Notes: generated from the sequence alone by a model not told the origin. Counted from the stretch's first letter, positions 19,601-61,361 are shown. The stretch: 64,000 nt of DNA from Sphagnum compactum (GCA_965153455.1 OZ234493.1:18404213-18468212), one strand, 5' to 3'. Made by a program: numbers and translations.

Positions 19601-22504
19601 TTCGCATATAGGTCTCCATTGGAATATTTATGGGATTCATATGATTGAATAATTTAGTCTAAGTATCAACAAATAATGTCACAATTAATGAATTACCAAA
19701 AACAATTTCAAATAATGTAAATGATTGATCATCATATTTAAATAATCATTTATTTCTTAATATTAATTAATTGATTATTTGGTTGAACCTTAATTATTCA
19801 GATAATTAAAATTTAGATTTAAAAATCAAATTGATAATTTGATATTTAATTTATTATCTTAATTAAATTTTTTATGTTGATAAGTTATTCAAATCATTAT
19901 TTTAGATAATGATTCATGATAATTAATTTTCATAAAATTAATTTAGGTATATAAAAAGACATATTTTGGGTACCCAAACCACTTATTGGTTATTTGAAAT
20001 GACCTTACATGTGGGTATTGCATTTAGGGTGGACCTTTCATTTAAGGTTGATTAAATTACTTATGGATTCTTTAATTATTTCGAAATGAACTTACATTTA
20101 GGTATTGTATATAGGCCTTAATTTTCATTCAAAGGACACCCAAACTACATATTGGTTATTTTGAAATGACCCTACATGTGGATATTGCGTTTAAGGTTGG
20201 GTCTGCAACTCAGGTTACTTAAATCACCTATGGGTTATATTGAAATGAACTTGAATATGGGTATTACATTTACGGCGACGTATTCATATAATTTTATAAT
20301 ACCTGCACACATATTTATTTTCACCAACTACAAATTTGGCTTTAATTTTTTTAATAATTAAATAAAATTCGTAACAAAACACAAAAGAAGGTATGTCTCT
20401 TACCGTTTGGTCATATTTCCAAGCTGAGTTCTTTCACTTTAAAAAAAAAGAAATATAATGACATTGCATTGTTTTACATATGTTTAAGCCTTAAAAATTG
20501 TGCCCAAAATGCACCATAGATTTATTTTAATTATTATAAAATTGTAAAAAAAATGTTAATTAATTTATATGTCCCAACCTCTAAACCTAAACCATAATTC
20601 TAACATTAAATAGTAAATTTTACATTAAACCCTAACCCTTTGTACCATCAATGGGACCAATTTTTCATTATGTTTATTTTTATATATGTTAAATCATACT
20701 ATTAGGTGAACAAATAATTTTGAAAACATGAATCTCATGATGGATTGGTGGGGAATCAAATATTTAAAAAATATTTTTATGTTTCATGGTTAATGAATTA
20801 TCACAATATGATACGAGTATTGCATTTAAATTAAAGAGGGTTAAAAAATATTGAACTTTAACAATTATGGAACATATGGAAACAAAGGAGATTCATAATT
20901 GTGGTATAGATCTAAACAAATGATAGGATCAAAAACTAATACAATGAGCAAAGTCTAGAGTATAAACCTTAAGCTTTGATATGTATGAACCAAATTCTTA
21001 AACATTAAATCATAAGGCATAACTTTAAAAATTGAAATGATATTTTTCCATAAGCACTATTACAACTTTAACTAAACGAACCCTAACAAAAAAAAATCTT
21101 AGTGATATATGCCCTAAACCCAAGAAATTATGCAAAACATACAAATTATATAATGCAAAACAATTTTTTTTAAATTAGAAAATAAATTTTAAAGCTTTTA
21201 AACTACAAAGATTTACCAACTGAAGAGAAAACCTTAATTTTAAAAAACAATCAAATAAATTTCGTAAAAAACCAAAAGAGAAGTTAGGTTTGTTACCTTT
21301 GTATGATCTCTCCAAGCTAATTTTTTTCCATTTTCTTTGAAGAAGATATAGAATGAAATTGTATTATTTCACCTATGTCCAAACCTTAAAAATTTCCCCC
21401 CAAATTTAGTTTAATTTAGGTTAATTACTATAAATTTGTGAAAAACTTGCCAACTAATTTATGTGTTCCAACCTTAAACTTAAACCATAATTTAATAATA
21501 CATACTTATAATAATTACATGAAAAGATGTATTATAATGTCCATTCCATAAATAAATTAGGTAAACAAAATTTTGTAAACTATGAATTAATTAAACCAAA
21601 ATGGTTGCAATTATGACATTGTTTCCATTATAAATTGTTTATAATACCTACATATGGGGACCTATGTTCATCATCCATGAACTAGGGCGAACCTTAATAA
21701 ATTGATAAGTAGGATTAAGGGAGGGGTGGAAAAAGTGAGTAGGTAATTAGTTAGGTATTTAGCAATGTAAAAAACATAGGTAGGTAAGTAAACATAATGG
21801 TAGGTAGGAAGGTGGGTGCATAGGTAGGTAAGTAGGTATATAGGTAGGTAGTTGGGTTGGTAGGTAGGTTAATAAAGTAAAAAGGAATTTCAAGAAACAA
21901 GGTAAATAGGTTACTAAGGTAGGTAGGCATGTAGGTAGGCAAGTTAGTAGGTAGGAAAAAAGTTATTCTAGCAATGTAGCAAGGTAGATAAATTAGTACA
22001 TAGGAAACAAATTACCTTATCAAGGTGGCTAGGTTTGTAGAATACTTATGTCAATAGGGTGGTTGTGTATATAGGGTTGTTAAATAGTAAGGTAGCTAGG
22101 TCAATAGGGTACGTGTTAGTACAATGGTTACGTTAGTAGGGAAGCTAAATCGATAGGGTATGTAGTCAACAGGGTAGCTAGGTTAGGAGGGTAGGTAGTT
22201 AATATAATAGCTAGGTTAGTAGGATAATTAGTTATTAAGGTAGCTATGTCAGTAGGGGATAATTAGTAAGGTACCAAGGTTGGTAGAGTACTTATGATAG
22301 TAGGAAAATGAATAGGGTAACTATGTGTGAGGTCAAGTCTAAGAAAAAACAATCAAGAACAAACCCCATAAAAAAAAACATTAGTCAGCAGCGAAAATAA
22401 ATGGACTGTGATGAACCTCATATGGTGTCGAATGGAAGAATGCAGCCCATCTAGTGAACAGAATGGCGAACTGGTGCATTGGTGGTTGTTGGTTCATTCT
22501 GGCC
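16655..22504. mobile_element. MULE copy A, non-autonomous (5850 bp), transposase deleted
   Basis: TIRs of about 36 bp (GGTTGGAGTGAACCAGCAGCCACCAGTGCACCAGTT ... AACTGGTGCATTGGTGGTTGTTGGTTCATTCTGGCC); perfect 9-bp TSD CTTCCCAGT at 16646-16654 and 22505-22513; both arms are homologous to copy B in inverted orientation. Confidence 0.93.
17610..18816 (+). pseudogene. MULE accessory gene with C2H2 zinc finger (copy A), decayed
   Basis: ATG 17610 MAKGRRLKKVGG; acceptor TTTAG at 18145; CKVGTC-x12-HLEVH at about 18253-18321; ends ESKMIHGK* at 18816; several stops and frameshifts. Confidence 0.75.
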
Positions 22505-34400: not shown

Positions 34401-36198
34401 AACACTATATAAACAAGGGGGTGTGGTCATCCAATTTCACATTAAGAAATTTGTGCACATGGGATGAGTTAATTAAAAAGCTCAACGCAAAACAAAAAAA
34501 CAAATTATGCACATTTCTAAAATATTTACCTTCCTAACCTACTTATCTACCTAGCTAGGTAGGTACCTAGTTTGACCTACCCCTCTAGGTTGACCTATGT
34601 AACTACCTACTTAAATACCTACCTATATGAGTAGGTATTTAACCTAGGAACGTAAAACCTACCTACTCATTAAACCTAAGTAGGTAGGTTAGTATGTAGC
34701 CTAGGTTTGTAGGCACCTATTTATGTACCTACCCAACTACCTACCAACCTAATATTAATATTTTTATTAAATTATTTTTATGCCACGTGGCATACTTACA
34801 TTGGGCCACGTGTCATAATATAATATCATCCAAGTATTTGAATTGAACGTCCTAGATATTTCAAAATAATAATAATTATATTTTATAATTAAATATTAAG
34901 ACCCGTGGCAACACATCATTTGCCGTCAATTGTGACCAAAATAGTTGCATCTTAGTCGCATGTGACAATACGTATACAATGGAGTCAAAGGATGAAATGT
35001 ATTTGTTGACTTTTTCTTTCATACAATACCCTTTGTCATTTGCGACTACTTTATCACATGCGACTTATCTTAGGCGACTAAAGGGATTTTAGTTGCAAAA
35101 TGTTTCTTGCAACTAAAATTTAGTCACAAAGACTAGTCGAAAATACATATTTTTCTTCTAGTGTACAACAGGTGTTCTGAAGCTAATTTGATCAAAGCTG
35201 GTTTTGGGAATGGTGGACATTATTTTGCAATAGCTACCAGGTTATTCCACTTGCGTTGTGCTTTGGCACGAACGTGACTAGCAACCTTTTGATCATTCCA
35301 CCTTTGCACAGCCATGGCATTTCCCAAGATGCGAGCATTCATTTTAGCATGGTCTTGATGTCGAGGACTTCTTTCAAAAGTTGAAGGCCTCTTAGGTTTG
35401 GCCTTTTCTGCCACCAAGCCATGCACCTCCTTCAAATGCTTGGTCAACAACCATTTGGCAAAATATGCGACAATGCAAGTGCCAACTTTACACTTCCATT
35501 TCAACCCAACCTTCGTCCATTCTTTGTCCTTCTAAGCCAAATTAGGTGGACAAGGGGGTGCCGGTGGCTGAGAAGCCTGGTCGATTTCAAGTTCCGGACC
35601 TAAACCAAAAAATATCAAGAAGTAAATCAATATTTTGTAATAAAAAAATCTTAACCCTAAAACCTTACACATAAAGAGTTCAAAAAACAGAATGCAGGTA
35701 TTACAAAACATAAAATCACACAATCACATATTATTCCTGTAAACTTTAATTGTTTTCAGGTATTGCAATAAAAAAATTTTGACAAAAAAAATCCCGCACC
35801 TTCCAACAAATGATGGAAGGTACAGATACAATTAAACTTCAAAAAACTTGTACAATTTTTTTTATCTGCATTTAATCTAATGTCCATAAATTTAAAAAAA
35901 ACCTATATTACAAACTGTCATCCTTGTCAACTCTAATCCACATAGATTGTTTGATACATCAATTTTCAATTCTCATTTCTAATGAAACAACATTTTGCTC
36001 CTCAGGTATTAATTATGATAGAACACCATTTTGCTCAGCAATTGCCTCATCTGATGCAACAACATTTTGCTCAACAATTGCCTCATCTGATGTAGTAACA
36101 TTTTGCTCAATAATTGCCTCATTTGATGCAGCAACATTTTGTTTGTGAACTTCCCAATCACCACCACCACTTTTTTTCAATCTCTTTCCTCTAGCCAT
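31493..36198 (-). pseudogene. MULE accessory gene with C2H2 zinc finger (copy B), convergent with the transposase and split by the CACTA insertion
   Basis: ATG 36198 MARGKRLKKSGG plus 12-aa repeats (EQNVxxSDEAIx); next exon from about 35599 with C-x4-C-x12-H-x4-H (CKVGTCIVAYFAKWLLTKHLKEVH); resumes below 31733 as VLGLNAWGVGSVPRDVTSRMEKDEDLQEMIRS..ESRMIHGR*; colinear with 17610-18816. Confidence 0.8.
31734..35163. mobile_element. Non-autonomous CACTA (En/Spm) element, 3430 bp
   Basis: Ends CACTAGTAGAAA ... TTCTTCTAGTG; 3-bp TSD TAC (31731-31733, 35164-35166); subterminal CGACTA/TAGTCG/TAGTTGCA motifs; AT-rich internal tandem array at about 32080-33350; absent from homologous copy A. Confidence 0.93.
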
Positions 36199-36269
36199 TA
36201 CAACCTTCAACATAAAAAAAACCACCATTTCATTGTTAATTATCAATTCTAATGAACTAAACCAAAAGG

Positions 36270-37200
36270 ACTAAAGAAACAAAGAAAAAAAAAAACCGCC
36301 TGCTGCCATTGCCTTCTTAAAAACAACACCATCATAGAAGAAGGTGACGACATTGCTGCCGTCAGCTTCTTCGTAGCAAAACCACCAAAAAGAGGCGCAA
36401 GCCGCCATTTTCTTGCAACAAATCCCTCGAAGAAGGTGACGAAAGTTGTTGTCTTCTTTTTCTTCACTACAACAAAACCATAAAAGAAGATGATGGCTCA
36501 TTACCGTTGCCTTCTTTGTTGCAACAAAACGATAACAAAAGGTGACACTGCCATTGCCTTCTTCGATGCGCTGCTACAAAACAAAAAGAGGAAGGCAACG
36601 ACAACATTGTTGTCGTCGCCTTCTTTGCTACAACAAAACGAAAATAAAAGGCGATGGCAATAATACTGTCGTCGCCTTCTACGCTACACAAAAAAAAAAA
36701 GGTGACGACAGCTTTGTTGCTGTCGCCTTTGCTACGCTACAACAAAACAAAAAGAAGAATGTGACAGTAGCAACGCTACTGTCGCCTTCTACGTTGCAAT
36801 TTTAAAAAAAAGGCGACGGTAGCTTTGTTGTTGTTGCCTTCTTCGCAGCACTGCAACAAAATAAAAAGAAGAAGGCGATGGCAGCAACACTACCATCGCC
36901 TTCTTTGCTGCCGTCGCTTTCTACGCTGCAACAAAAAAAAAGAAGTAGAAGCAATGTCAGCCTTCTTCACAGCGCTGCAACAAAACAAAAAGAAGAAGGC
37001 GATGACAACTTTACAAAGCTGCCATTGCCTTTTGCATTCTAACAAAAAAAAAAAAAAAAGTTGCCGTTGCCTTCTTCGCTGCGTTGAAACAAAAGAAAAA
37101 AAAGAAGGTGACGGCAGCAACGTTGCCATTGCCTTCTACGCTGCAGCAAAAAAGAAGAAAAAAACGATGGCAGCTTTGCAACAAAACAAAAAAAAGAAAA
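36270..37200. repeat. Array of short palindromic units (AAGAAGGCGAYGRCAGC..GYTGYCGTCGCCTTCTT) upstream of the accessory gene; shorter counterpart at about 17050-17480
   Basis: GAAGGYGAYG and CRTYGCCTTC alternate, separated by GCTRCAACAAAA and poly-A. Confidence 0.85.
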
Positions 37201-40200
37201 CAACGAAATGAAAAACAAGAAGGCTTAAGGGAGGGAGTTTACCTTCAAGGTCCCGTGTGGGTCCTGCTTCAGGCACTCCAACAGTGGCTCTGCTCTCGCT
37301 CTCGCTCCAACAATGGCTTTGCTCTCGCTCGACGGCTCCCGAGCCCTGGCGATGGAATGAGAGGTAGGAGGTGGGAGGTAGGAGGGGGGAGGTAGGTGGG
37401 AGGGAGGTAGGTACGAGGGAAAAATGTTGGGGCGGAGAGAAGAGGTGGAAAAAAACAATAACTTTGGGTAGGGAGGATGTGCTTTTGGTTCATCCCCAAA
37501 ACGGCTTCAACAGCCTCATCCTCAACTGGTGCATTGGTGGCTGCTGGTTCACTCCAACCAGTATAATATTATCACCAACCAGGTTCTTCATTTGAATCTT
37601 TCAATGTATTGAAAACAACTTGTGTTTGAATTCCCTTGTTGTGCTTTTGGTATTGTTAGATAACCCTGGATGAGACAATATGCATGATACCAGTGAAGCT
37701 AAAGTTCTTGAATTTAGAGTGATTTCCATTGTTAGAAATTAATTAGAAATTATAAAATTGGTTTTTTAAACTAATCAATGCCTTTTCATCAACTTGGCCA
37801 AAGTAGAAGCTCATTGGGCATCAAATTTTTCCTTCCACATTATATGAGGAAATGCATGGGAAATTTCAACGAATCAATGCTTCTTCATCATATTGGCCCT
37901 TCAGATTGACCCCTTCACATTCCAATACTTAACCGGAACAATGTTATTTGTTTTCTATTTGCATTTGTCCATACAGGAAACATTTGGGAGATGGCATCTT
38001 ACGGTGCCTAGATTGTACCTTACATAATTAAGTGTATGTGCATGTATTTTCTTCCAGTTTTTTCACATGAAAGGTTGCTGCAATGGCTTGAAATTCTTTC
38101 CTATACAAGGCATTTCACAAGGTCAATGCTTACTTTTTTGAGATATTTAACCACTAAATGTCAGGAGTGACAATTTACAATGTAAAGCAGCCCATATTGG
38201 GCTTGTCTGACGTTCAGGAGATGATTTGCGCTCACCAATGACCATCGTCTACCAACGACCTTTCAGAGAAAAAGAATACTTAGAGGAAGTATCTCATTCT
38301 CTAATTTGAGTTTATGCTTTCGAATGACTTTTACAATGTAGATGTGTTGTAAAGGTGTGTAGTCTGTACCTGCACATGCTGCAATATTTGGTGCCTTTTT
38401 AAGTGGCAGAATCGACCATCACGGTCATATCTGTCATTACTGACCTTTGCATCTCCATTTGACAACTACCTGGACAACCTACCACAGACATTGAGGGCAG
38501 GGAACTGGAATCTGCCAGGTCTTGTCTGTAATCTAGTGCACTATGGAGTCCATCTACTAGATAATGGGGTCCATGTACCAAATACTATAATAACTTGGCG
38601 GCTTTGGCACAAATTATATATATATTTTTAAAACGCTGCAATTTTCAAATTTTATTTTTCTGAAAAATGATTTTTTTTGGAAGGAGATTGAAGAATATTC
38701 TGGAATATTCTATTTTTGGAAATGGAATTCTCCAATTTAATTAATTGTTGGGCAGACATGTGCTGAAGCCGCTCCTGAGTCGATATTTTTCCTACAGAGG
38801 TGTAGATTGGGATCTATCTTGCAATAGCTTTATGCTAACCTGGGTGCTGGTTCACTCTGGCCCTATTCTAACCTCTCGTACATCTGTGAGTTTGGTGTCT
38901 CCATCCAGCACATGGTGGAATCAGGAAAGTAATTAGCTCACTGTTACTGCCACATCATAATTCAACTGGCACTGGTTTGAAGCTTTGCTTACCGATTTTG
39001 GCCCATCGATGTCCATTTATCACATTTAAGCTGGCCCATTGACCTATAACATTAATGCTGCACCAATGTATCAACTCTGACGCTCGGACCAACATCGCAG
39101 CTTTGATACCTGACAGTGTCTATTATGTAACTTGTAATTTATTTAGTAAATAATTTTGTAGACGTTATTGTTTTGTCTCTGCATAGCTAGCTAGTTGCTA
39201 TTGTGGCTACACAGCTAGCCTAATCCTTAAAATAGCATAGTTGGGTAAGTATTTCTGGAAGGTGGAGTTGACTTGGTGATTTCTGTTTTTGAAAAGGGTG
39301 ACTAGGATCGCTGTTTATTATTTGCACATGTCTGCAGAGTGACTGCAGTGGTAATAAGTGTGATTGAACACATCGACAACATGTGTGTTGTTAAGCGGAG
39401 TGTATTTGGCTATGGGGTTATCGCAAAGAGAAGGCAAATTTTGGTGATTGGGTTACTTGCAAAGGGAATGCATTTGACTTCACAGAATCACCAATCAGAG
39501 GTTAACATGCTTCAAATTTTGTAGAAGGCTAAATTTTAATTGAGGTTGCCCATTTTCTTCATTGCTTTAGTGGTAAGAAGTTTTATCCAAGAAATCTTCA
39601 ATAGAGTTTTGTAGACGAAATATCCTGGTGCTACAAACTTTGCATGCCATTAGAATTTAGCATACACTACAAGAGTCACTTGAGTCAAGACTGGTCCACG
39701 TTGCTCAATGCGTATGCTTAATTCTAATGTGACACTTGCCAATTGTGACTTTCCAGCCACCAGAAGAATTTAAGATACATTACAAGACTAGTCCCCAATA
39801 GATTATGGGGCATGATTAACTAGGGCTGGCCCATGGATATGTGGTGCAAGAGAATCTAAATGGCATGCCGCATAAGCCAACATGAAGTAGATGAAAAAAA
39901 AGGTTGGAATGGGCAACCTACATAATTCAACCAATATTTTGTAAATTGAGCAAGAAAATTTGGGCTTAAGCTTTTGAAAAATATTTCAAAAATTGGTGGA
40001 GAGCTTTCTAATTTCTGCATTTCCCAGCTCCAAGAACTACAACACACAACCATCAAAGTGCTTGATACGCCAAAAAAACGTAGTCCAATATAATTCACAT
40101 TTAACTTTTTTGTTTCACCTTAACCTTCAAAAAAAGGTATTTATGTCTTTGATTTCTTTCATATCTTGCACAATTTGGTTAATAGTCTTGTTAACTAGAA

Positions 40201-41635
40201 TAGGCTTCCAACTCCATCTACAATCTGCATATGGGCAAAAAACACTTGCCATTGAATCCCACTCACAAGTTTAGCAAAGAGGAAAACCAAAATGACATAC
40301 ATCTAGTTTAAATTCATGAGGCTAATGGCTAAATTTTTAGAAATTTTCAAATTTTGGTCACAAGGTGCCAAGAAGCTCTTAGAAGTTGGAAGTTGGAACT
40401 ATGTAAGCCACATTTGCAAATTCATATGTTCACTTGTGAATTGGAAACACAAAAAGGGCAATTGGAAAGTCAACTTACCCAAATGTATTTTATTTTCAAA
40501 TGTTCAAGCATGTGATAGTTCTTGAACCTTGACCATTTTGAAGATAATGGTGATAATGTTGGATGTTGCATTTAGCCTAGATCATATAGTTGTTTAAAAT
40601 CCACATACACATCATCAAGCTTTTCATTAAGTGTGTGTTTGACAATGTTCAAAACCAATAGCAGATGTGAATAATCACATAACTAACATCAAAATTAAAA
40701 CAGTTGTAAATCGATCATGTTTTACTTTTGATAGTGTTAGGGATTTTCATTCTTACCATGTTCAATATTATTTAATAGCTTAAGCTTATGATGTTCCTCA
40801 TGAAAATGAGTTCAGTTCAACATTATGGTAAAGAATGTAATCTCAATTTTGAAAACATTGTCTTAGTTGACAAATTAGAAATCACTATAATTGGCTTGTG
40901 AATCACACACTTCCCTCAAAACTCAATTTTCTTTTGAATGTCACACCTTTCAACTTCATCTAAGAAGATAATTTTGTGGTGTCTTAGTGGTAATGTGACT
41001 TTCTTCTACACAAATTGTTGCACCTCACATTTATACTTCTACATGACAAATTGTCAACCTCCCCCATCTACCCACCTCAATTTTAGTATCCTTGACATAC
41101 ACATTTAACATCAACATCTACATTAACGTCGAAATATCTCAAGGGAAAAGTTTAATTGATATGCAGAAATTGAACAATCTAAAAACATATCATTGAAAGT
41201 ATTAAATGTAAACATTTTAATTGGAATTTAGGGCCTAACAGCTCATGTGTTAAAGCTAGTATGCTCCAAGGTTATTAATGTCAACCTTGTCATGTCACAT
41301 TAGTCACATCTGTTTAAATGCCAATGCAACCATATGTCACGTCGGTTTAAAGTCAACTTAAGGTCAAGCTAGATTGAGTATAATAATTTTTTTATCAAGG
41401 GTAAAATAGTTACCCTTGTGGACATAACACATGCATTCTTAGTTGAAGAATTATAAATAAAAAAAATGGTGAAACCATTAAATGTCACAACAAAAAAACT
41501 TTATTGAATTTTTTATAAATAGAGAAATCTTAGCCATCCATTTATTCAATTACATTGATTTCAACGGTTTGTTACATCATGTAATTAATCTTGATGGTCT
41601 AGATCACAATTGAAATTCAATCACAATATACTTAA

Positions 41636-42440
41636 CCTTGTCCATCGATGGACCGAATTTGTCCACCTTTGTCCAAAAGCCAATCGCTTACCCAAGAATG
41701 CAACCGAAATTGTCCACCCATGTCCAGGTAGCAATCAGCCTTGTCTAAGGTTTGTAACTAAATTTTGGTCGGCCTGGTGAACAATCACCCTTATCCAAAA
41801 GTGTGATCGAAATTGTCCACCCTTGTTTAGGTAACAATTAGCTTTGTCTAAGGTTTGCAACCAAATTTTGATTAGCTCGATGAGTGATCACCTTTGTCCA
41901 AAAATGCGACTGAAATTTTTGACCCCTGTCCAGGTAATGATAGGTCTTATCCAAGGATTGCAATTGAATTTTGGTCGAACTAGTGAATGATCACCCTTGT
42001 CCAAAAGTCTGACCAAAATTCTCCACCTTTATCCAAGTAGAGATTACCTTTGTCCAAGGAGTGTAACCAAATTTCAGTCAACTTGGCAAGCAATTGCCTT
42101 TGTCCAAGAATGCGACTGAAATTTTCCACCCTTGTTTAGGTAGCAATTGCCCTTATCCAAGGAATGTGATCAAATTTTGATCCACCTGGTGAGCGATCGC
42201 CCCTATCCAAGAGTGCAACTAAATTTTCCACCCTTGTCCAAGTAGCGATTGGCCTTATCCAAGGAGTGCGATCAAATTTTAGTCGTCTTGGCAAATGATC
42301 ACCCCTATCCAAACATGCGACCAAAATTCCCACCCTTGTCTAGGTAACAATCGGCCTTATCTAAGGAATGTGACCGAATTTTGGTCAGCCCAACAAGCAA
42401 TCACCGTTGTCCAAAAGGTGCCGACCAAATTTTGGTCATT
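41636..42440. repeat. Tandem array with unit of about 102 bp, 7-8 copies
   Basis: AAATTxTCCACCC recurs near 41707, 41810, 41912, 42016, 42118, 42221 and 42323; sub-repeats CCTTRTCCAA and TGCGACC. Confidence 0.9.
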
Positions 42441-42699
42441 TTGTGGACAGGATACAAACAAAATTCAATTGCATTAAAATGATGGGAAAGTGCATTTGCA
42501 ATCAATTTAAATTCAAGTTCCTTGACAGAATCAAACCTGAGCATAAATTGGCCACAGCTATCTTATTGTATCATTTCTTCCACCTCTTTCTGTTTACCAC
42601 AGTGGGTTCCTAGTCTTTGGTTGCTTTTTACAATCAATGTGAAGAACTTTGGTGTAGCATGGGAGGTGGGAAAGGAAGGTGAATATGTTACATACTAGG

Positions 42700-44330
42700 G
42701 TGTTCCTTTGCCTAATTACCTCAACCATGCAAGACTATGATTACTTCCAGCAATTGTTGCTTGGGAGATGGGGGTTGTGGGTGAAAGGAGTCAAGGTGTG
42801 TGGGTAACATGTCGGATTCAAGGTCTAAGTGTCCTACCCAAGATTTTTTTCGAGACCATACATCCAAGCACTTTTGAGAAGAATCTTCAAGGGAGAAAAA
42901 GTCTAGAACTAGGTCAAATTTTGAAAGATCTTTTCATAAAAAGTAGAAGGTCGCAAGGGAAAATTGGACTAATCTAAAGGCGACTATGGCAATGCAGAAA
43001 GTTGTGATGGACTTCTTCTTAGAAAAGGATATAGCTACCTTGATGGTGTTGTATGCTAATTTTTAATTGGAAAGAATTGATCGATACAAGATGACCATGC
43101 AAAATGTTTTTTGGGAAGCTTTGAAAGCCTTCAAGTTTGAAGAGGATTGTAATTGCAAGGACTATGCGAGATGGGAGGATTTGAAGCTGAGGGATGCTAC
43201 TTTCAACTTGGTCCAAAGGGTGTCAATAATTTACCCATTGAAGGAGATTCTTCTTTCGAAATTCCTTTGTTGCATGAGAAGGTGAAATGGTGGATGGGTT
43301 GGTCCAAATGTTTTGCCAAAAGCAAAGCACGATCACTTTCATAAGTAGAGAAGGGGCAAAACGCAAACTTGAGCCATCACAAGGATGAGGGGTCATTCGG
43401 GTGCCATCATTTGCCACCATTGTGCCTACTTTGAATGGTCCAAGTTGGCAAGGTGGACATGGCAAAAATTTGAAAAGTGTAGATTGAAAACTTTGATCAG
43501 GTGCCTTTGTATGTTGAGTTTGTTGGCAAAAAGTTAAAAATTAAGGATAATTACAAAGACCGATGTTGACTTTTTGTGGAGGCATTGGCTTGTTCCATTA
43601 ATCATTCGAGTGTCATAAAGTTTTATGCCATCCATGTAGATTCCATGGAGGCATAACAATTGTGATGGAACAGAGGCATGTTTCAAGAAATGTTGAGGTA
43701 CCATGATAGCCAAAATCAATCCCTTGACAATCAAGAGCTTTTGTGAGGGGGAGGGCCAAATTTTGAGTCCCACCAATGTTTTGTGACATTTAGATGAGCA
43801 CAAATGAAATTGGCCTGGGCATTTTTGTGCATCATGAATGCAATCCAATAGTCTAGGACATTACATAATGATTTATCACAAGACAACATCATGTTGCATT
43901 TTTCATCAGACAACCTTTCGGCTATATACATTGGTGTGTGTGATTAAGAGGTAGCTGGGAGGTTAGGGGAGGATAACCCATCCCCATATGGAAACCACAA
44001 TTCAACAATAACTTCAATGGTGGGTGGCGCCGGAGCTCTTTTATACTTACGGAGAATGAGGTTCTATCAAATCTCCTAGACAAATGGGATTAACACGCCC
44101 TCAAATTCTAAAATTGGAAACATATTCGATGGGTAAGCTTGCAAAGTTCATATGGCAATAAGATTTTGAAATGAATATTTTATGGATTCATCAACCATGT
44201 CATGTTGTAGGGTTCAACTTAGAAAGATGTTGGACCCAAATCCCAACATGTGAAAAAATCTACAATCGGCTATGAATGTTATGATGGGACCTCTTGACAA
44301 TTGGACTCCACCAGAAGAATGATCGACATA
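42700..44330 (+). pseudogene. Decayed intronless protein kinase (eukaryotic-type fold) with N-terminal extension
   Basis: Motifs in order: QGGHGK (Gly loop, about 43450), EFVGKK (beta3 Lys), FVEALACSINHSSVIKF (alphaC Glu), LHNDLSQDNIML (catalytic loop, 43861-43896), IGVCD*E (DWG-like), WWVAPELF (44018-44041), TYSMGKL; many stops and frameshifts. Confidence 0.85.
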
Positions 44331-44879
44331 GTGTTTAGGGTTTATAGTGGTTAAGGTTTAATGACATTTTTCAATAATTGTAGCATAGGAAAGAGTGGAT
44401 ACAACTTTATTATAGATAATGAAATTTGTATGCACTTTATTATAGATTGGGAATGAAGTGCATACAAAATTTCACCTTTACTTAAGTTTGGAATGCACAT
44501 TATTCTTTTCAATTTTATTAGTTTCGGTTTTTTATCTTATTTTTGTATCATTTATGTAACATTCCTTGTTACGTCTTATTTATATAATATTCATTATTGT
44601 GTTTAGGTTTATAGTTTTCTTTCTTGATCTCATTTCTGTATTTCGAATTTAGTGTTGTTGTTGGGTCCATGTGTGGATAGGGGACCCAAGTCACCTAGCT
44701 TGATTTTTCAATGGAAATGTTTTTCACATCCAAGCCAATTGAAAAAAAATGAAATGAATTACATTTTCAATGGCCAAAGGTTGGAAAAGAATGCTAAGAA
44801 TTGCCAAAGGACAAAGCCAAGGTTGCCATCTCCACAAATTATAATGTCTAGTGATTGGATTTTGGTCCAAACTAAATGG

Positions 44880-45510
44880 CAACCGAATTTCGGTCACCAA
44901 ACATTGCACCTTGTCTAGAAGGAAACATGGACCCAATCCAGCTTGCAACATATTTCGGTCACCATGTGGATAGGGGTTTGCAACTGAAAATCAATTGCAA
45001 CTTGGACTAGGAGCGATTAAAAATAAGTCACAATTTGGGCCAAGAGCGATTAAAGTTCTCTAGTTTCCCTGTCCAGCTTGTGACCAAAAATGGAAAACTT
45101 CTGTCGTAATCTAGATAGGTTAGTCATTTGTCCAGCTTACGACCACATATGCAAAACTTCAATCCTAAGCTGGATAGGTCAATTGTCCAAGATGTGACTG
45201 AAGTTTCCATTTTTGGTCGCAGCTTGGACCAATCCCTTAATAAAGTTACAATTAAAAGTGGAGAACTTCGGTCACATCTTCAACAAGTCACCCCCTTGTC
45301 CAGATTGCGATTGAATATGGAGAAGTTCGATTGTAAGCTGGATAAGTCAATTGCTTCCAGCTTGGGACCCAACTTGTCTATGTTCGATCACATGATACAT
45401 GGTGGCACTATGTAGCTTGTGACCGAAAGTGGACAGGCTTTATCGCAATCTGTCCATTTTGCCAATCGAACTTATCCATTTTCGATCATATTTAGTTATA
45501 AGACCGAAAC
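44880..45510. repeat. Degenerate array of TCCAGCTTGYGACC / GGTCRCARCTGGA units in both orientations, related to the 41.6-42.4 kb array
   Basis: Recurring tccagcttg, gaccgaa, ggtcgca and ctggata motifs. Confidence 0.7.
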
Positions 45511-46755
45511 TTAATTGTGTCTTTGTTTTTACCAACAGGGTGGTTGGAATTCAACAAGTGTGTTGATTATCCTCAAGGAAAGAAGAGGAGGGAGGAGAAT
45601 GTGGGACCTTTATAAAAGGTGTCATTCCCACCCTTTGACGTCACTTTCTTTTTCAACATGTGAGGATTATGGTGGTGTGAGCAACTGTTCCCTTACACTT
45701 GGAAGAAAGTGGTGGATTCTTTGAGGCTGGTGAAGTTCAGATCCTTCAATTGTTTAACAATTGTCGCCGAATTTCATCAGTTCGGCCTCTTTGATATTCA
45801 CCATACCCATTCCCAATTAACATTTAATTTACATTACAAGTATTTGAAATCAACTACAAGTCATAAACCTTAAGCCTTTAAAACTAATAATAAAAACTAT
45901 TGTAAATAAAAAAATATAGTAGATAGACTTTTAGGGATGGGATGGTGGACTTGGGGGATGAAGGAATTGATCCAATGGTTGGGCTAGGGCCTTTTCCAAA
46001 AAAGCAAGCGAAAGGCGAAAGGCACAACCCAAATAGGGAAGTATTGGAAGATCCTAATCAGTTGGCACACAATGGATGTACCTAGCCCTTGGACGCATTA
46101 TGTGGCAAGCCAATATGTCGATTGGTGTCACATTGACAAATTTTGGCTAGTGCAGAGGCATGACACTCATGTCAAAAACAATGTAGCCCATTTTAGTAAC
46201 TATAAAGACCATCGTATGAAATCGCGATTGGTGGGTGTCAATTTGGCTATTTGGGGGACATGACCATATTCAAGATCCGGGCTACATGTTAAGAACAAAC
46301 ATTAGGAATTGCAGGTTAAGTCATGATCAAATTTTTAACCTAGTCAAAATCAAACCTATGTCCAACAAGTCCTTTGTTATTGGAGGGATTTTCAAAGTGG
46401 TGCACTTTGTTACACCCTAGACCCTTTCTTCCATGTTCTCTTGTGCAATAGTTTGTTTGAACTTTGTGCCAGCCTGCCTATCTCCTTATTGAACTAAGCA
46501 ACACCTATGTTCCTTGACTTCTTCTTCTAAAACTCTACATGATCTAGATCTTCCATCTCCTGGAGCATGAATGTGGGCCCTTTTTGCATTACATGTTTAT
46601 TTCTTGTTTTGGATTCTTTGTAGTTATATTATGTAGATCATTAGAAGTTTAGTGAAACTGGAAAAGGTTTTGCAATTGTGTTTGAACTTCTTTCATTTGT
46701 TTTATAGATCTGTTATATAGCTCACTAGGAGGGTTATTGTTGGAGGTCAAAGGCC

Positions 46756-48250
46756 ATGGCTCTTAATGTAGCTTGGGATGTTGAGAACAAAGGTTTAATA
46801 ACAGGGGGGTAGGTGTATTGAGTTTGACAGAGAAAGAGGTGCCAACTTCCCAGATTGAAGAAGTGTTTGGGCCCAAATTTTCAAAAAATGGCTATAGTTA
46901 TGATAGGAGATTTTCTACTGAAATAACAAAAAAGATTCTTGAGTTGTACACAAGGGTCATAGGGAAGTGCAAGGTGAAAAATGGACAAATTAATAAGAGT
47001 TTTGCTCAAGGTGTGATCTACTAGTTCAATTATGATGTTGAATTAGATTAAGCAAAGTATGTAGTTCATCGTAACAAATATGTTTCAGAGTTGAAGGAAA
47101 TGAAGGCAGCCAACATGGTTCGATGAGTGGAAACTAGCAACGTATGCAAAGTGAAATGAGGCCATGATTGCCTAGTGGCAAGTGGGTGAAAAATGAGCAT
47201 GGAGTTGTTGTTCATGCTCAAATGCAAAAGAGCAATGGTGTTCAAAATTTGAACAAGTTGGAGAAACCAACAACTATTAGGGTTGAAAACTAGCCTTAAA
47301 TGGCATGAAGAAGAGATTCAAGGTTGTGAAGATTTGTTGCAAGGTGAACGGTTGGTGTTGGAAGGTGCAAAAAGGACAATTTCTATTGTTGTAGCACAAA
47401 ATGAAGTGACGATTGCTATTGAAAGGAGGTGTAATATTACCCTTGAAGACTTTCAAAATGTGAATGTAATAGGTTTACAGCAATTGGATGTTATCGAAAA
47501 TGCTTTAAAGGTTGCTTGGCAATCTATGGTTGTTTTTTTAGTGTAGCAAAACCCTAAAGATTCTGAGGACTTATGTGAGAGGTTTGATAAATCTCAGGTT
47601 GATTCTAAACTTAATGCAACAAGCCATGAATCAAAAGTAATTCTTTCAGGTGTTTTTCAAAGTACATTGAAAGCATTTGAAACAAACAAAGACTAGATTT
47701 TCATCACCCAAAAGTTTAAAATGTTAAAATTGAAAGAAGAAGAGGTGGTTTGAGCAGATCTAGTGGCCTAAATAATAAACATTGTTGTTGTGTTTGAGAA
47801 CAATAAATCTAGGATAGGTCAACTTGAGTTAGAGGTGGTAGTGCTTGAGGAAATGTTGAAGAAAATGCAAGTAGGTGGTGGGGTTATGCTTTACCCACAG
47901 ACCATGTTTAATGATTCTGATTTTATATTAGATCTCGATGTTTTGCAATGACCAGGTAAACCCATCGTTGTTGTCAATCAATGCCCAATTTGTGCACAAT
48001 GGTTTTTTAGTAATGATATTATTGTAGCTAGTTGTGGCTAGACATATCATGTGTGTTGTATTGCATACTATGTGGGTTGTCATTGATATTGCAAGGTTGT
48101 TGATTGCAAGGAAGAATTTCAACCTACTTGGTTGCAATTTGTCGGTGTTTAGCCCTTGAGTGAGGATGCCTTGACAAACTTGAGAGCCTAATCACCAATG
48201 TGCTTGTCATGGCTATAAAGATTGAAAGAAAAGGTGTATCTTTTAGGTGA
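46756..48250 (+). pseudogene. Decayed coiled-coil protein with C-terminal RING-H2-like finger
   Basis: ATG 46756; N-terminal IEEVFGPKFSKNGYSY..LELYTRVIGK; Glu/Lys/Leu-rich middle; CPIC-x13-CG*TYHVCC-x10-CKVVDC at 47982-48107 (first His position is now TAG); donor AG|GTGAG near 48247. Confidence 0.75.
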
Positions 48251-49159
48251 GTTTTTGTTTGAAGTTAAACTTTAAATTTCCTTACTTTAAATATGTGTTT
48301 AACAATGTCCACAGTAAGTTAGCAACAATTACCTCATCAACCTTGAATAGTTTGAAATCATACGCTATTGAACATGTTGATTGTTTCATGGCTAAATGAA
48401 GGATTGTGGCTTAAGACTTTTGGTTCTATAAAGATTGTAGTTTTAAAATAAATCTAGAGTTGACTAAGATTAAAAGCCACATGTTGACTCATGGCAGTTG
48501 TGCCATGGTCTTTTTTATACATAACCAATCCTTTCTAATTTTGAGTAAAACTCTCTTTTACAAATTCCTATTGGATGTTATGACACACAACACATCTCAT
48601 TCATTGAAACTTAAAACAATATACAATAACAATATGGTCATTTACTTAAAAAAATGCCCACATACTTGTTGTTCTATTCCAAGTGAGACAAAAAATTTGG
48701 TTGTGCTCCAATTCCACAAACAGCTTTTCAGTACATGTTTGTTCTTCAGCTTGTAGAAGCTCTTCCTCATCTTCACCAAGGTTTCTATCAACAAGCTCAC
48801 TATAACCTACTTTAGATTGGATCACACCATCACTACTCCCAACCCACTCCCAACCCTAATTTCACCATTGTAAACATTTGTATAATCAGCAACATGTAAA
48901 GAAGAACCTCGTGAAGCTTTTACAACCCCAGTCAAAAACAAATCATGTTCTAAGTTCATTGTCAATTGACCTTGAAAGCTAAACCAAGTACACTATATTA
49001 TGAAATCAAAATAAAGAAGGAACATATAAATCACTAGTAGCATTATTTACCATATTTGTAATGCGAACCTTGAATGATCACTAGCAATGTTTATGATTGT
49101 TCAAGAAACATCACAAAATAGGTGCCAAAAAAATCACCAAAATTGTAATGCTCACAAAA

Positions 49160-49620
49160 CATTGCTCATGTAAATTTAACAATGAAAGAACACACATATC
49201 AGTAGCACCAAACTTTCCACCCTTGAAGCAAATTTACCAGTGCTCATGAATGAAGCAAATGTTAAATAGAACACTAAATTTGGAGTGTTCATGAAACACC
49301 TTAGTGTTCATGAAACACCTTATAGATCCAGTGTTCACAAAACAATGCACATATCACCAACATCAAACCTTAAACCCTTGTGAAATGAAACAATGTTCAT
49401 GAAACACCCTATAGATTTAGTGCTCACAAAGCAACAAATCCAATGTTCACAAAACACACAAATCACTTGATCACCAATATTGCGTAATGTTCACAAAGCA
49501 CTAAAGATCTAGTGTTCACAAAACACAACACACCACTACTATAACACTCATGAAGCACCAAGAAAAACACTAGGAGCAATAAACAATGTTCATGAAAATT
49601 TACTGAACAAAGCATCAAAT
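49160..49620. repeat. Degenerate array of GTGYTCAYRAARCAC units, probably TE subterminal repeats
   Basis: tgttcatgaaacac and tgctcacaaagca variants recur more than 10 times. Confidence 0.7.
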
Positions 49621-50909
49621 AGATCACACAATTGATGAAAGAAAAAGAGAAAAAGGAAATAATAGAGTCACACAACCTAGGAACTTATGAAGTAAGAAGA
49701 ACAAACTTGAACAAACTTGCACAGAAAGCTCACTTGTTTACATCAATGCAAGTTGATTGCCAATGATAAAGAAAAGTTGCAAACTTTGGCACTCCTTTTT
49801 GGTGCTCCTTTCTAACACTCATTTCCATTGTGCGTTGAAATCATGAACATCTTACATAATGATGAGAGCTAGTGCTTTCTCAAGCGGAGGCCGCAACTCA
49901 ATAGCAAACTAGACACTAGCCAAGCTAACATTTCTAACCTAACCCTATAATTCCTAACCCTAAATCCTTATGCCCTGCACAAGTTCACTATAAAAGAAGC
50001 CTGGTTGCTAGGGCATTTCATGAGTTTTTCAAACACATGCCCACTTATGTAAGGGCATTGCATGTGTATAGGAGAAGCAATGCCCACCCAAGGTGTAACT
50101 ACTTTTTTTTTGTTGCTGGTCTGGGCATATGATACCTGTGTTCATGCCCTGGCTGATACCTGGCCAGGACCTACATACCCAGCCAACACTGGTTAATACC
50201 TATTATGACTGGGACCTTTAGATGCAAGAAGATCATTACGAGAGAGAAATGATTTGTTGACCTTTTTATGTACCGAATAATCATCCAGTAAGTTCTCTTA
50301 TTTTCAAAAAAAAAGAAGCTTTGTAATTAGAGCTCAGGCAGATTATACATGAGCCACTGTTAATGCATGGACATTGTAAGAGTCATAGACTTGATAATAC
50401 CCCCATTCATTCACGCCACTTGGAGGTGGGAACGGTAGATTAAGGGATGGTTAAAATTATCTCAGATGCAGGAAGTCATACAACATATGCAAGCTGTCAC
50501 ATATATAAAAAATTCAATTCAATTATGTATTTTGACAACAACATACATGCCACATGGTGCTCAAATTGACAAGCTTGCATTTTGGCATTTCAAGGCTATC
50601 TCCACTAATGGCCCTACCACTCTAAGGCAGCTGTAATAAATGACGTGGAGGACTTTGCTTGTGAAACTTCATTGGTCTGTTGACGTTTGCACTATTCTTA
50701 ATGCCCATAGAACTGGCAGTCACATAAGGAAGAAAGGTTATAAAGTGGAGGGTTCACATTAAAAAAGGTATTATCAACATCAAATAAGAGATTTTTTAGA
50801 ATGTCTCATCACAAAAGTCTAGGAAGCTCCAGCAAAGGTGAAATGAGGACAGAAAAATGAAAGACTAGACTTGTGGATTTCCAGAGAGTGTTGCATCAAA
50901 ATCCACACC

Positions 50910-51192: not shown

Positions 51193-52039
51193 TGTTCTCC
51201 TGCAACTTGCAAGGGGAGTGAACCTGGCCACATTAGAAAGACTAAAAGAAATCAAATGACTGTTCATTCATTCAACCGTTCCAGCCAGAATGGTCAGTTT
51301 CTATGCAGCCCAGAGGACATGATTGGCCGAATTGATGGCCTGATCGTTTATCTCTTTTGCAGCATCGACTAATTGTCCGTATGTATTATTGCAGATATTT
51401 CGTGTAAAGACAGTCTCAACTAAGAGTACAAATTCTGTATACAGTGAATCGCTCCATCTAAGTTGGTGCGCGTGCAACTTGTTTACTGCATTTAAGGTCA
51501 CATCGCCTTTGTTGCCCTGTATGTGGATGTTCACCTCACCAATGGATTGTTTACAATTTTAATCTGAATAGATGCTTCCAAGTTCCTGCTCATGGCTGGA
51601 ACTTTTGACGTGGGAAAGACAAGAAAATTCATAGTTGAAATATGTGAGCGCAAATCAGCATGGGATAGGCTTGTTAAAGTTTCTTTTGTAGGTCACCATG
51701 TGTGTCGTAATGAGATGTTCTATATTACCGTTTGACACAATATGAGGCCTGGCTCTGTCATCTCCCTCTTCACAATGTTAATCTCTTGGTGCTCTGCTTT
51801 CGCTCCAACCTAAAAATGGATGGTATAAATGTATAATTTTTGAATTTCATTTTCATCCAAATCAACACTAGTTGCAAGTATAAGTTACGTGTGCAACTGC
51901 AAATCAATTTGTATTCGTTTATGCAACTACAAGTTGTTTTTCCTAAGTGCCACGAAAGATAGTCACATTTAAAGACACAAAAATGGTTGATTTAGATAGA
52001 AGTTGCAAATGCATGGGTTGGAATGCATAGGATTCCTTG

Positions 52040-59140: not shown

Positions 59141-61361
59141 TATATTATCTATACTATGTACAAATGTAGTATTGTCACTAGTTTTAATATTATAGTGTAT
59201 AATATTATATGTTAGCTAGTGTGGCCTATAATTAACTATAGGTGCACTAGCTTAGATTAGGTATATGCTACCTAGTAGTAAGGCAATGTAATAATTCAAC
59301 TCCTATACTATTTGACAACTTATTGAATTAGTTGCTAATTATTGAAAAGGCTATTTATTTAGTAGAGTATTATTTAAAATATACATTAGTATATTAATAT
59401 TTGACATGTAAATATGTTGACTTTGCAATTATGACTAAACTTGATAATATTTAGTTATCTTAGTCAGTAACTTAGGTCCTAGCCTGCAAGAGCTCAACAT
59501 GCTCTTGCAGGCTAGGGTTTAGGGTTTAGCGTAAATTTGTGAGGAGTTTATGATTCAACTTCATAAATGCAAAAAAACAAAAGTTTTTGTTGTTTTGTTG
59601 ATAACAACTCTGAGGTATGACAGTACAGAGAAATGTCACTCACAATGTTGCTGCATTTTGAACTTTAGAAGGGAGAGAAAGATTTTGATAATGTCAAATT
59701 ATACATGATATTGCAAACCTGACCTAAAGGCAGAAAAGGCAGAAAAGATGAAGAAAGAGGACAAGGAATTCAATGAAGACAATGTTAAAGATGAACAAGA
59801 GTTGTCCAATTCAAGTGGAGAGAAGGGGATGAAAGCTTCAAAGAAGGTATTTTATGAAATTGAAATCCTTCCCCACGTAGTTTACTTTGGTGATTTGCTC
59901 TACAAAAGGTGATAGTTGCACCAAGTTATTCATGGTTGCATCTTTCTCTCTTCAACAAATGCAGTTGTATGCTTGTGCATTGTCAAGCATAATATACATT
60001 TAGCAAATTCTGAAGGGTTTTGGACTAGTGATTATCACATCCCATCTGATGTGGTGATTTCTCTAGCATTTGTAATTATGTTTTTGCAGTGCAAATCCGA
60101 TTTGTAGCTTTTCCGGTCTATGGATCCCAAGTATGCAAAGAAGCATAGTTGCCTTTTTGATGGTTAATTACATGTTAAATGCTAGCTAAAAATGGCATTT
60201 GATTGAATTGCTATAAATTCACAGGAATGCTCTTATAGACTAGGGTTGATTGATTACACATTACCCCCCAGAAAAGCAGTTTTCTGTCACTTTTAGGCAA
60301 TAATTTCTCCCAAAAAATGGGAATTTATAGCAGAATATTTCATTTCAGAAAACTGTCACCTATTGGCATTTTTTCACCAGAAAAAAAGACTGGTCAGCTA
60401 TGTGATATTTGAAAAAACCTTCATCCAACTGTGAAAACAGCTGGAGAGAAAGATGTCCCTAATGGAAAAGTTGCTGTTATGGTTCAGAAACACAAACTTC
60501 CACATCCTTTTTCCTCTTTCACAAAGCCGCAAAAAACATTTGCAGATGTGAAAGGCAGGCAGTTCAAGAGTGCCGAGACACAGTTGCCATCGGACAAGAG
60601 TTGCTGTTGTTGTGTTCAGTTTAGGGAACATTCGTACCTGCAGGACCTACTAAAGAGCAAACTCCCCAATCTCATTCAGGCTCATCCCTTGCTCATACAG
60701 AAAGACATTGATTGTAATGCTGTTACAAGAAAATGAACACCCCTGGACCTAAATCTTCTTGTGCATGGAAAAGATCACACTGCTTGAGAGTTAGCTACCT
60801 ATAACTGAGCAAAAATGGAGGAAGTCTACTTTCGCCTTGACTTGCCCCTGAATGTCACTCGGGTTTTCTTCTTGGCAGCGGATGCAGATGACCGCTCACC
60901 ACCAAGTTCGCGGAATGGCATGCCCATCAAAGAGAGCAGTTTTAAGCCTTCTGTGTCATTTTTGGCAGAGGTGATAATGCAGATGTCCATGCCCCTTTCC
61001 TTATCAATGTTCTCAAATCGGATCTCTGGGAAAACACTCCGCTCTGGCAACCCCAGGGTGTAGTTTCCCCTCCCATCAAAACTGTAAGGGTTCACCCCTT
61101 GGAAATCCCTTGTTCTGGGGAGAGCCAAGTTCATCAGCCTGTCTAGAAATGAGTACATAACCTGCATCATCCAGGATATTGACATAAAGACTTCAACAAC
61201 ATACCAGATGAACAGTGCACATCATAACATTGTCTTAGTTACATCACTACAACCCTAGTCTATAAGAGCATTCCTGTGAATTTTTGTATGTTTTCACCCC
61301 TAAACTCTATGGAGCCTTAATGCAACAATGGAGAGTTGTCCAATTTCAGTATGCTTCGGTC
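59141..61361 (+). repeat. Direct segmental duplicate of 1-2218 (left limit lies at or beyond the window start)
   Basis: Colinear high identity; paired ORFs 1249/60398, 1668/60815 and 1679/60826; similarity stops after ATGCTTCGGTC (2218/61361). Confidence 0.97.
60826..61161 (-). pseudogene. RPL5: Orphan copy of RPL5 exon 3
   Basis: 336-nt exon with its acceptor intact; exons 1-2 are not present before the window end; 7 substitutions, 4 of them non-synonymous, including EQS>ERS. Confidence 0.88.

Follow-up and report, generated by a model that had tools for sequence, protein, structure and literature searches.

A decayed kinase locus in Sphagnum compactum, probably a truncated copy of a hAT-like transposon family with kinase and RING-H2 genes

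The terminal inverted repeats of hAT transposons are short and start with YARNG. Plant DNA transposons are usually thought to encode little besides their transposase; among the few known extras are a second protein in CACTA elements and, in some MULEs, a ULP1-like protease. We know of no hAT family that carries a kinase gene together with a RING-H2 gene. In the fungus Pseudocercospora fijiensis, one article describes a hAT family with a DUF659 domain and a dimerisation domain that could not be identified, in which histone H3-like genes were amplified to many copies and then decayed (PMC6710886). A kinase-carrying hAT element was not found described in the literature, as judged from listings and the beginnings of abstracts. 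Here, we describe a locus in a 64,000-nucleotide stretch of Sphagnum compactum DNA (GCA_965153455.1, OZ234493.1:18404213-18468212; this whole stretch is called the window below). Its positions 41267-46316 are, with a probability that we put at roughly 0.7, a dead, non-autonomous and truncated copy of a multicopy hAT-like cut-and-paste family of bryophyte-like genomes. The copy would retain the left end, a 103-bp array, a kinase gene, a second motif-rich region and the first part of a RING-H2 gene, which we call M2-RING. An earlier note on this DNA had proposed that a kinase gene hidden by stop codons and a coiled-coil/RING-H2 gene behind it form a repeated mobile or virus-derived unit. Its observation is confirmed and its mobile-unit interpretation is partly supported: the kinase and its array are multicopy, and a RING-H2 gene travels with the kinase in long copies, but the RING gene that was named belongs to another family. 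The true RING partner appears to be the M2 gene, of which the window holds a stub only.

The features of the unit are as follows (window coordinates, strand, description).

41267-41278, + strand: left terminal motif CAAGGTTATTAA, the start of the repeated unit, where the similarity of four loci begins.
41279-41691, + strand: left subterminal region, 70-77% identical by blastn to L025-28, L050 and L051/52 from 41269-41285 on.
41692-42433, no strand assigned: tandem array of a 103-bp unit, 7.2 copies with 70% matches (TRF, self-blast).
42693-44350, + strand: decayed intronless Ser/Thr kinase gene, recognized by motif order, tblastx and relatives.
44660-45510, no strand assigned: motif-rich region that is not a regular tandem array, recognized by inverted pairs and shared 9-mers.
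45600-46316, + strand: 5' fragment of the M2-RING-H2 gene, with an open piece at 45988-46260 (tblastx identity of 37-46% in the frame of a 91-aa open reading frame, ORF).

The related loci come from one metagenome scan, in which 273 stretches matched the search pattern and 199 encode a relative; 80 loci, 45 of them distinct, were kept and fetched (858 kb in total). Together with protein libraries and one read-mapping set, they form the evidence base for the family. In the window, the N-terminal region of the kinase gene reaches to about 43400 and the kinase domain covers about 43440-44320; the similarity to L004 starts at 42693. The motifs in the + frames of 43.4-44.1 kb come in the order GGHGK (frame 1), VEFVGKK, EALACS, LHNDLSQDNIML and IGVCD*E, followed across a frame change by WWVAPELF, and they span three frames. 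The catalytic series (G-loop, beta-3 Lys, alpha-C Glu, HxD...N, DxG and APE) is complete and in order, as had been claimed for a motif set hidden by stops, and the same series is legible in alignments of relatives and in the L001 ORF. The kinase is of the non-RD type (HND), with CDWG replacing DFG. Decay is extensive, with 10 stops per 211 codons in the frame 43369-44001 and at least two frameshifts in the gene; the window reads TGT GAT TAA GAG where relatives have C-D-W-G, so the example of decay given earlier was correct.

The relatives carry the kinase assignment. Public assemblies contain four short predicted proteins that are 53-71% identical to the window kinase and have stop-free motifs; P0002 and P0003 (65-71% identity) read HNDLSQ...CDWG without stops. 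P0012 and P0013 (432 and 443 aa) are 36% identical. Against the Pkinase (PF00069) gathering score of 31.7 bits, P0013 and L001 each reach 33.6, L002 35.7 and P0186 38.0, while P0012 falls under the threshold at 31.1; the window kinase itself has no Pkinase match. A PDB sequence search with the L001 kinase returned 0 chains at E<=1e-3, the AlphaFold model of the L001 protein (9-row alignment) has a mean pLDDT of 42.8 and is too poor to use, and the neighbours of P0012 in a language-model atlas are generic kinase clusters. The relatives with intact motifs show that the decayed kinase is genuine. As a separate observation, L003 has a 167-aa open frame at 2504-3007 (- strand) adjoining its open kinase frame, which may encode an SRA/YDG-like domain.

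The kinase lies in a repeat. By tblastx, the kinase core (43400-44350) is found in all 45 distinct loci and the part at 42900-43400 in 9-17 loci; the best kinase match holds stops in 75 of the 80 loci. The DNA of 41270-44275 is 70-81% identical to L025-28, L050, L051/52, L061/L004 and L034, and L043 matches 41998-46254 at 77%. Raw DNA reads of the own species, mapped at a likeness of at least 80%, give a depth of 11.4 over 43341-43874 compared with about 1-2.7 in the flank at 39.1-40.7 kb, so that the kinase lies at about five times the baseline, and the word depth of own-species contigs over the kinase is 60-83 versus 13. The left boundary is sharp (41267-41285) and common to four distinct loci (the L028 group, L050, L051 and L061). 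Six copies compared pairwise show 80-89.5% identity in a star-like pattern. Within the subfamily, differences are nearly equal over the three codon positions (e.g. 0.17/0.15/0.19), and we therefore consider that the copies decayed neutrally after amplification. Taken as sequence, the array and the kinase are a multicopy transposon-like repeat with shared flanks.

The course of decay is only partly as had been suggested. Comparison with five homologous copies gives 82 changes private to the window kinase, of which 45 are C>T/G>A, the kind that the earlier note had invoked, but 24 are the reverse transitions (T>C/A>G) and 13 are transversions; the C>T/G>A excess is a bias and not an exclusive signature. 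The observed/expected CpG ratio is 0.31 over the window versus 0.41 in the element, and low values are not confined to the element. A polyA RNA run (1.8 billion letters) gave zero depth in 16 of 18 bins across 41205-50816 and 0.07-0.13 in the other two; 77 reads were placed anywhere on the window, all as partial overlaps and none at 99% likeness. The window copy is an inert relic; the locus itself implies no function, and the interest lies in the family.

The class of the family is suggested by its ends. The termini follow the motif YARGGTTRTCAA, beginning YARGG, and are accompanied by subterminal arrays rich in GGTCRCC. Counting both orientations, the 45 distinct loci contain the family motif YARGGTTRTYAR 21 times, compared with 3.6 times in shuffled sequences (maximum 6). 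In the window copy, L028 and L061, the forward motif marks the left end. Its reverse complement, TTGACAACCTTG, is found in 13 loci some 1.2 kb beyond the kinase, and the similarity between copies stops there. The 103-bp unit consists of two half units of about 52 bp, rich in TTYGGTCRC and TTGTCCA motifs, and the array presumably represents subterminal transposase-binding repeats. A homologous 103-bp array recurs in L028 and L051, and in about 10 of the 45 distinct loci the kinase is preceded, at 0.2-1.3 kb (about 4 kb in L016), by arrays built of other units. In the main family, the region upstream of the kinase contains GGTCACC-type motifs in both orientations, and such motifs flank the kinase unit. 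The motif-rich region at 44660-45510 is common to L043 and partly to L050 and L034, and forms inverted pairs with the left array (I7, I10, I11, I12, I18 and I20). It had been described as a second array related to the first. The 103-bp array stands, at 41692-42433, but TRF called no array at 44880-45510; the two regions share 20 9-mers in each orientation (null mean 4.4, maximum 12), and their local alignments score 34 and 31 (null 23.2 +/- 2.7, maximum 32). Since short motifs are shared both ways and there is no TRF array, the regions are related at the motif level only.

Other classes were tried with the same boundaries. CACTA and Helitron elements were rejected because the shared left boundary begins CAAGG/TAGGG, not CACTA or TC. 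A long terminal repeat (LTR) element was rejected because the ends of the window unit score within the shuffle range; in the LTR/terminal-inverted-repeat test of both ends, the direct and inverted scores were 37 and 35 versus a shuffle mean of 31.7 (maximum 39).

The longest relatives provide a transposase. L005 (973-12142) and L012 (167-11963) are about 11 kb long, colinear and 77-82% identical, with unlike flanks, and large parts of them are in common with L016, L048, L077 and L029. On one strand, L005 and L012 carry a DUF659 hAT-type transposase, the M2-RING-H2 protein and the non-RD kinase. From eight long loci, 119 of 141 ORFs were submitted to Pfam, the 22 that overlap the kinase being excluded, and two families only were found: DUF659 (L012:1201-1431, L016:1-249) and zf-RING_2. 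Against a cutoff of 34.7 bits, DUF659 reaches 52-57 in read-throughs of L012 and L005, and the score in L016 is 60; it is present in six of the 45 distinct loci (L005, L012, L016, L020, L062 and L050). Behind it comes a stretch, LLPYEWWDF...RNRL, that weakly resembles the hAT dimerisation domain. DUF659 has been described as a domain of hAT transposases (PMC3985635). It had been stated that no transposase or termini could be found and that the class was unknown. The window indeed lacks a transposase, both in a six-frame Pfam search of 38-52 kb and in a tblastx comparison of the L012 and L005 elements with the whole window, but the left end at 41267 and the DUF659 of the long relatives place the family: it is probably a kinase and RING transposon of a hAT-like class, and not viral.

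The M2 gene is the second accessory gene. The tblastx partners of the window piece are L012, L029, L049, L042, L032, L005 and L016, and the M2 frame in those loci continues to a RING-H2 finger that Pfam recognizes; zf-RING_2 (cutoff 27.3 bits) scores 30.6 in L005:7183-7527 (P0014) and 28.1 in L048:5292-5537, minus strand (P0015). The N-terminal domain of M2 has no Pfam family. Of the 45 distinct kinase loci, 11 have M2 and 8 have its RING end; for these counts, as for those of DUF659, only 18 of the 45 loci have at least 5 kb of upstream flank. M2 precedes the kinase, on the same strand, in L012, L029, L049, L042, L032 and L005, and is inverted in L016 and L060; in the subfamily of the window (L043, L050 and the window itself) it lies downstream. 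L043 is homologous to the window until 46254-46316 and then runs on in M2-gene sequence that is missing from the window, and the remainder of the M2 gene was not found anywhere in the window. The coding frames of L012 could not be separated by tblastx because the copies are too alike at the DNA level. An apparently colinear match of L070 to the window past the kinase was rejected as noise. In L049 (796-3050) and L042 (3996-6223), only about 250 bp separate the end of the M2-RING gene from the kinase-domain match, too little for the N-terminal region of about 215 aa that the kinase usually has; this arrangement may be a decayed M2-RING-kinase fusion form.

The coiled-coil/RING-H2 gene of the earlier note, which does follow the kinase on the same strand, lies beyond the M2 stub and has the following features.

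46756-48277, + strand: intronless pseudogene (16 stops, one frameshift) belonging to a separate bryophyte family.
47976-48092, + strand: RING-H2-like finger, C-x2-C-x14-C-x-(stop at first His)-x2-H-x2-C..., recognized with zf-RING_2.

The gene encodes a conserved N-terminal domain (FGPK.SKNGY...), a coiled coil and a C-terminal RING-H2-like finger. Its ATG is at 46756, with one frameshift before the + frame of 46785-48250, which has 16 stops per 488 codons. The read-through finger (residues 398-436) scores 11.9 bits against the zf-RING_2 cutoff of 27.3; P0016, which is 74% identical to the window ORF, reads CGHTYH where the window reads CG-stop-TYH, and exceeds the cutoffs of both zf-RING_2 (27.5 vs 27.3) and zf-RING_UBOX (28.2 vs 25.2). 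An exhaustive library search gave 144 relatives at E<=1e-3 and 43 at E<=1e-10, many of them short fragments; several full-length relatives of 491-536 aa align with the window ORF from end to end. A protein search restricted to near-equal length returned no relative. Named relatives are from Calypogeia fissa (a liverwort) and Ceratodon purpureus (a moss). The model of P0024, which is confident (pLDDT 82.6), shows an N-terminal domain, a disordered linker, a pair of long antiparallel helices at 193-286 and 290-381 and a C-terminal finger. With this model, Foldseek found coiled-coil look-alikes only (SMC arms and similar, best E 4e-3) and nothing that matches the N-terminal domain, which also has no Pfam family; the language-model atlas scores for P0024 are low (0.81 or less).

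Two further observations concern this RING family. P0047 (163 aa) is a chimeric gene prediction in which a RING-family fragment is broken after a GGG motif by an unrelated repeat, and this repeat recurs, on either strand, in five distinct kinase loci (L075, L065, L055, L019 and L032). P0051 (798 aa), the member from Ceratodon purpureus, has, besides a long acidic tail, an additional RING of the classic C3HC4 kind (zf-C3HC4_3, 35.5 bits).

Could the kinase and this ORF be two cargo genes of one mobile unit of about 41.6-48.3 kb? They lie 2.4 kb apart on the same strand, both intronless and both decayed, and the true companion gene of the family likewise ends in a weakly similar RING-H2 finger. 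The interval 45604-47266 is spanned, at about 96.5% identity, by a contig from another run labelled as this species, and the junction is therefore not an assembly error. At 48171-48182 there is a match to the right-end motif with one mismatch; however, the homology within the RING family extends past 48182 to about 48264-48277, and for this reason 48171 is unlikely to be an end. The homology of the kinase family stops at about 46316, 440 bp before the start of the ORF. Neither tblastn nor tblastx with the ORF found a match in the 80 kinase loci, and when the 144 relatives were used as queries, the N-terminal and coiled-coil parts were found in none of these loci, the only matches being at the RING-domain level to the finger of the M2 gene. 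The ORF is also near single-copy at a likeness of at least 80% (depth 1.4-3.8 over 46545-48146 with a baseline of 1-2.7, i.e. about 1-2 times the baseline, compared with about five times for the kinase); more distant decayed relatives clearly exist. We regard a single unit of this extent as quite unlikely. On these comparisons, the ORF at 46756-48277 is identified as a neighbouring pseudogene of a separate bryophyte family of proteins of about 500 aa, outside the kinase-family unit.

Alternatively, the locus could be what is left of a giant virus, or some other virus, that integrated and brought genes for a kinase and a RING protein. Pfam gives the window kinase a single hit, to a model of poxvirus kinases, Pox_ser-thr_kin, at 14.5 bits and below its cutoff of 19.7, and some Nucleocytoviricota clusters are among the language-model neighbours (for the kinase at rank 13 with a score of 0.95, for the RING protein with scores of 0.76-0.78), which are to be taken as leads only. 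Nevertheless, two scans of IMG/VR gave 86 pattern matches for the kinase and two for the RING family, none of which was confirmed as a relative; the six-frame Pfam read-through of 38-52 kb recognized no family, and the 119 ORFs of the long loci contained only DUF659 and RING. The unit, at 3-11 kb and with transposon-like ends, also counts against a virus. The viral part of the former proposal is thus not upheld, and we consider a viral origin very improbable.

Several observations weigh against the hAT-like reading of 41267-46316. No right end and no target-site duplication was found for the window copy by motif searches or in its flanks; the best right-end candidates, at 48171 (TTGACAAACTTG) and 50564, are both mismatched, and the first lies inside the RING ORF. 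L032, the sole locus with both motifs (at 325 and 7801), has 8-bp flanks that do not match (ggttgtcg and gcagaatg), and the left terminal motif was not found at the left edge of the 11-kb copies. The Dimer_Tnp_hAT (PF05699) score at L012:2270-2680 is 12.6 bits (E 0.12, cutoff 21.4). Every long copy is decayed, and no element with three open genes was observed; the transposase, M2-RING and kinase may have inserted into or beside one another and have been copied as a block afterwards. A segment of about 4 kb with M2-RING is inverted relative to the kinase in L016, L048 and L077 compared with L005, L012 and L029. The related loci are metagenome contigs and do not come from the genome assembly of the window. 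Finally, the RING module of M2 is weakly similar to the separate RING family (blastp 5e-6 in the 144-protein set), and a deeper link between the two may exist. Among the remaining end tests, the window flanks gtatgctc and agagccta (the latter at the 48182 candidate) do not match as an 8-bp duplication, and no single copy with a convincing pair of terminal inverted repeats was found among the loci; the 8-bp duplication test is weak because the copies are about 20% diverged. For the inversion of M2-RING, one possible cause is recombination between inverted subterminal repeats.

A further explanation does without a transposon: the kinase and M2-RING would be fast-evolving host families whose members multiplied through segmental or tandem duplications before they decayed, a hAT element being a bystander or a one-time captor (transduplication). 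Long open kinase frames are found only in L001-L003, with a GC content of 43-47% compared with 30-38% in the other loci, and the intact genes are under constraint (46% GC in L001 and L002; differences between L001 and L003 of 0.21/0.19/0.45 at codon positions 1/2/3, an excess at the third). This explanation also gains from the lack of demonstrated target-site duplications and from right boundaries that vary among the copies (44075, 44275, 44808 and 46254), and hAT elements with a host-like, histone H3-like gene are known in fungi from the report cited above (PMC6710886). Duplication of host genes does not readily account for the sharp left boundary that several loci share, for the reverse complement of the terminal motif ending the unit in 13 loci, for star-like identities among copies at unrelated sites, for subterminal motif arrays on both sides of the kinase unit or for the repeated co-occurrence of the kinase with DUF659 and M2-RING. 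We judge this explanation to be rather unlikely and favour the hAT-like family. Under the hAT-like reading, the unit would have moved by hAT-type transposition with a transposase supplied in trans, the subterminal arrays would be the binding sites of that transposase, and the kinase and M2-RING protein would have worked for the element, e.g. through effects on host proteins.

The surroundings of the locus are eukaryotic, plant-like nuclear DNA, with GC contents from 17% to 47%. When 67 of the 77 window ORFs of at least 85 aa were compared with Pfam (10 low-complexity ORFs at 35.9-37.6 kb being excluded), the matches were limited to Ribosomal_L5 and a weak PPR; split exons of ribosomal protein uL5 lie near both ends of the window, and a PPR fragment is also present. 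A direct duplication (3-2218 and 59143-61361; 2.27 kb, 91.4% identical) takes in the final exon of the uL5 gene (Ribosomal_L5_C), and hence the gene is present twice, about 59 kb apart. An inverted duplication of several blocks (17395-21790 versus 36390-23056, 71-81% identity) brackets 24-30 kb. The segment 51885-53486 is a repeat of higher copy number: raw DNA depth is 24-29 there, the baseline being about 1-2.7, and loose ends are numerous at 51195, 52833 and 53062. The stretch 35876-37600 is of low complexity, with overlapping K/A/F-rich open frames on both strands. In the self-comparison of the window, no sequence of 41-49 kb recurs elsewhere, the internal array excepted.

What the family might be in a wider sense can be stated tentatively. 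It may represent a bryophyte hAT-like lineage with two conserved accessory genes, for a divergent non-RD kinase and a RING-H2 protein with a new N-terminal domain, that brings a kinase/E3-ligase pair into the cell, perhaps against host silencing or repair proteins; the RING family of about 500 aa would then be an offshoot or a source of the same RING module. If, across diverged subfamilies, the part of the element that is best conserved and most frequently copied is a complete and very divergent kinase, with a RING-H2 gene often beside it, the family would represent a novel type of transposon cargo. Such a cargo would suggest that the element interferes with host signalling or ubiquitination through proteins of its own, and would account for the kinase and RING pseudogene fragments predicted in bryophyte assemblies and host-associated metagenomes.

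Compared with known systems, there are both similarities and differences. The kinases resemble the Pkinase superfamily (PF00069) in GG(Y/H)GK, the Lys in AGK, the Glu in EAL, HNDL..SN, D(W)G and APE, but they are very divergent, with intact relatives at 33.6-38 bits and CDWG instead of DFG, and they have their own N-terminal region of about 280 aa and intronless genes that are mostly pseudogenes. The RING proteins have the same C-x2-C...C-x-H-x2-H-x2-C spacing as RING-H2 E3 ligases (zf-RING_2, PF13639), with P0016, P0014 and P0015 above the threshold; both kinds carry N-terminal domains outside Pfam families, the last zinc ligands of the family of about 500 aa are spaced unlike the classic C-x2-C, and a ligase role is putative. 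The P. fijiensis hAT family is alike in its DUF659 and in an extra non-transposase gene that multiplied and then decayed, and differs in being fungal, in carrying copies of a housekeeping gene as cargo and in decaying by RIP (PMC6710886); the family described here has a divergent kinase, for which no close host counterpart was found, and a RING protein, in a plant-like genome. The DUF659-type hAT transposons of plants (Ac/Tag1-like) share with it the DUF659 of the long relatives (52-60 bits), short YARGG termini, subterminal repeats in both orientations and perhaps, at a score below the Pfam cutoff, a dimerisation-like stretch. A matching end pair and 8-bp target-site duplications were not seen in the family copies examined, and the window copy differs further in being without a transposase; the family itself differs from these transposons by its two extra genes, for a kinase and a RING-H2 protein.

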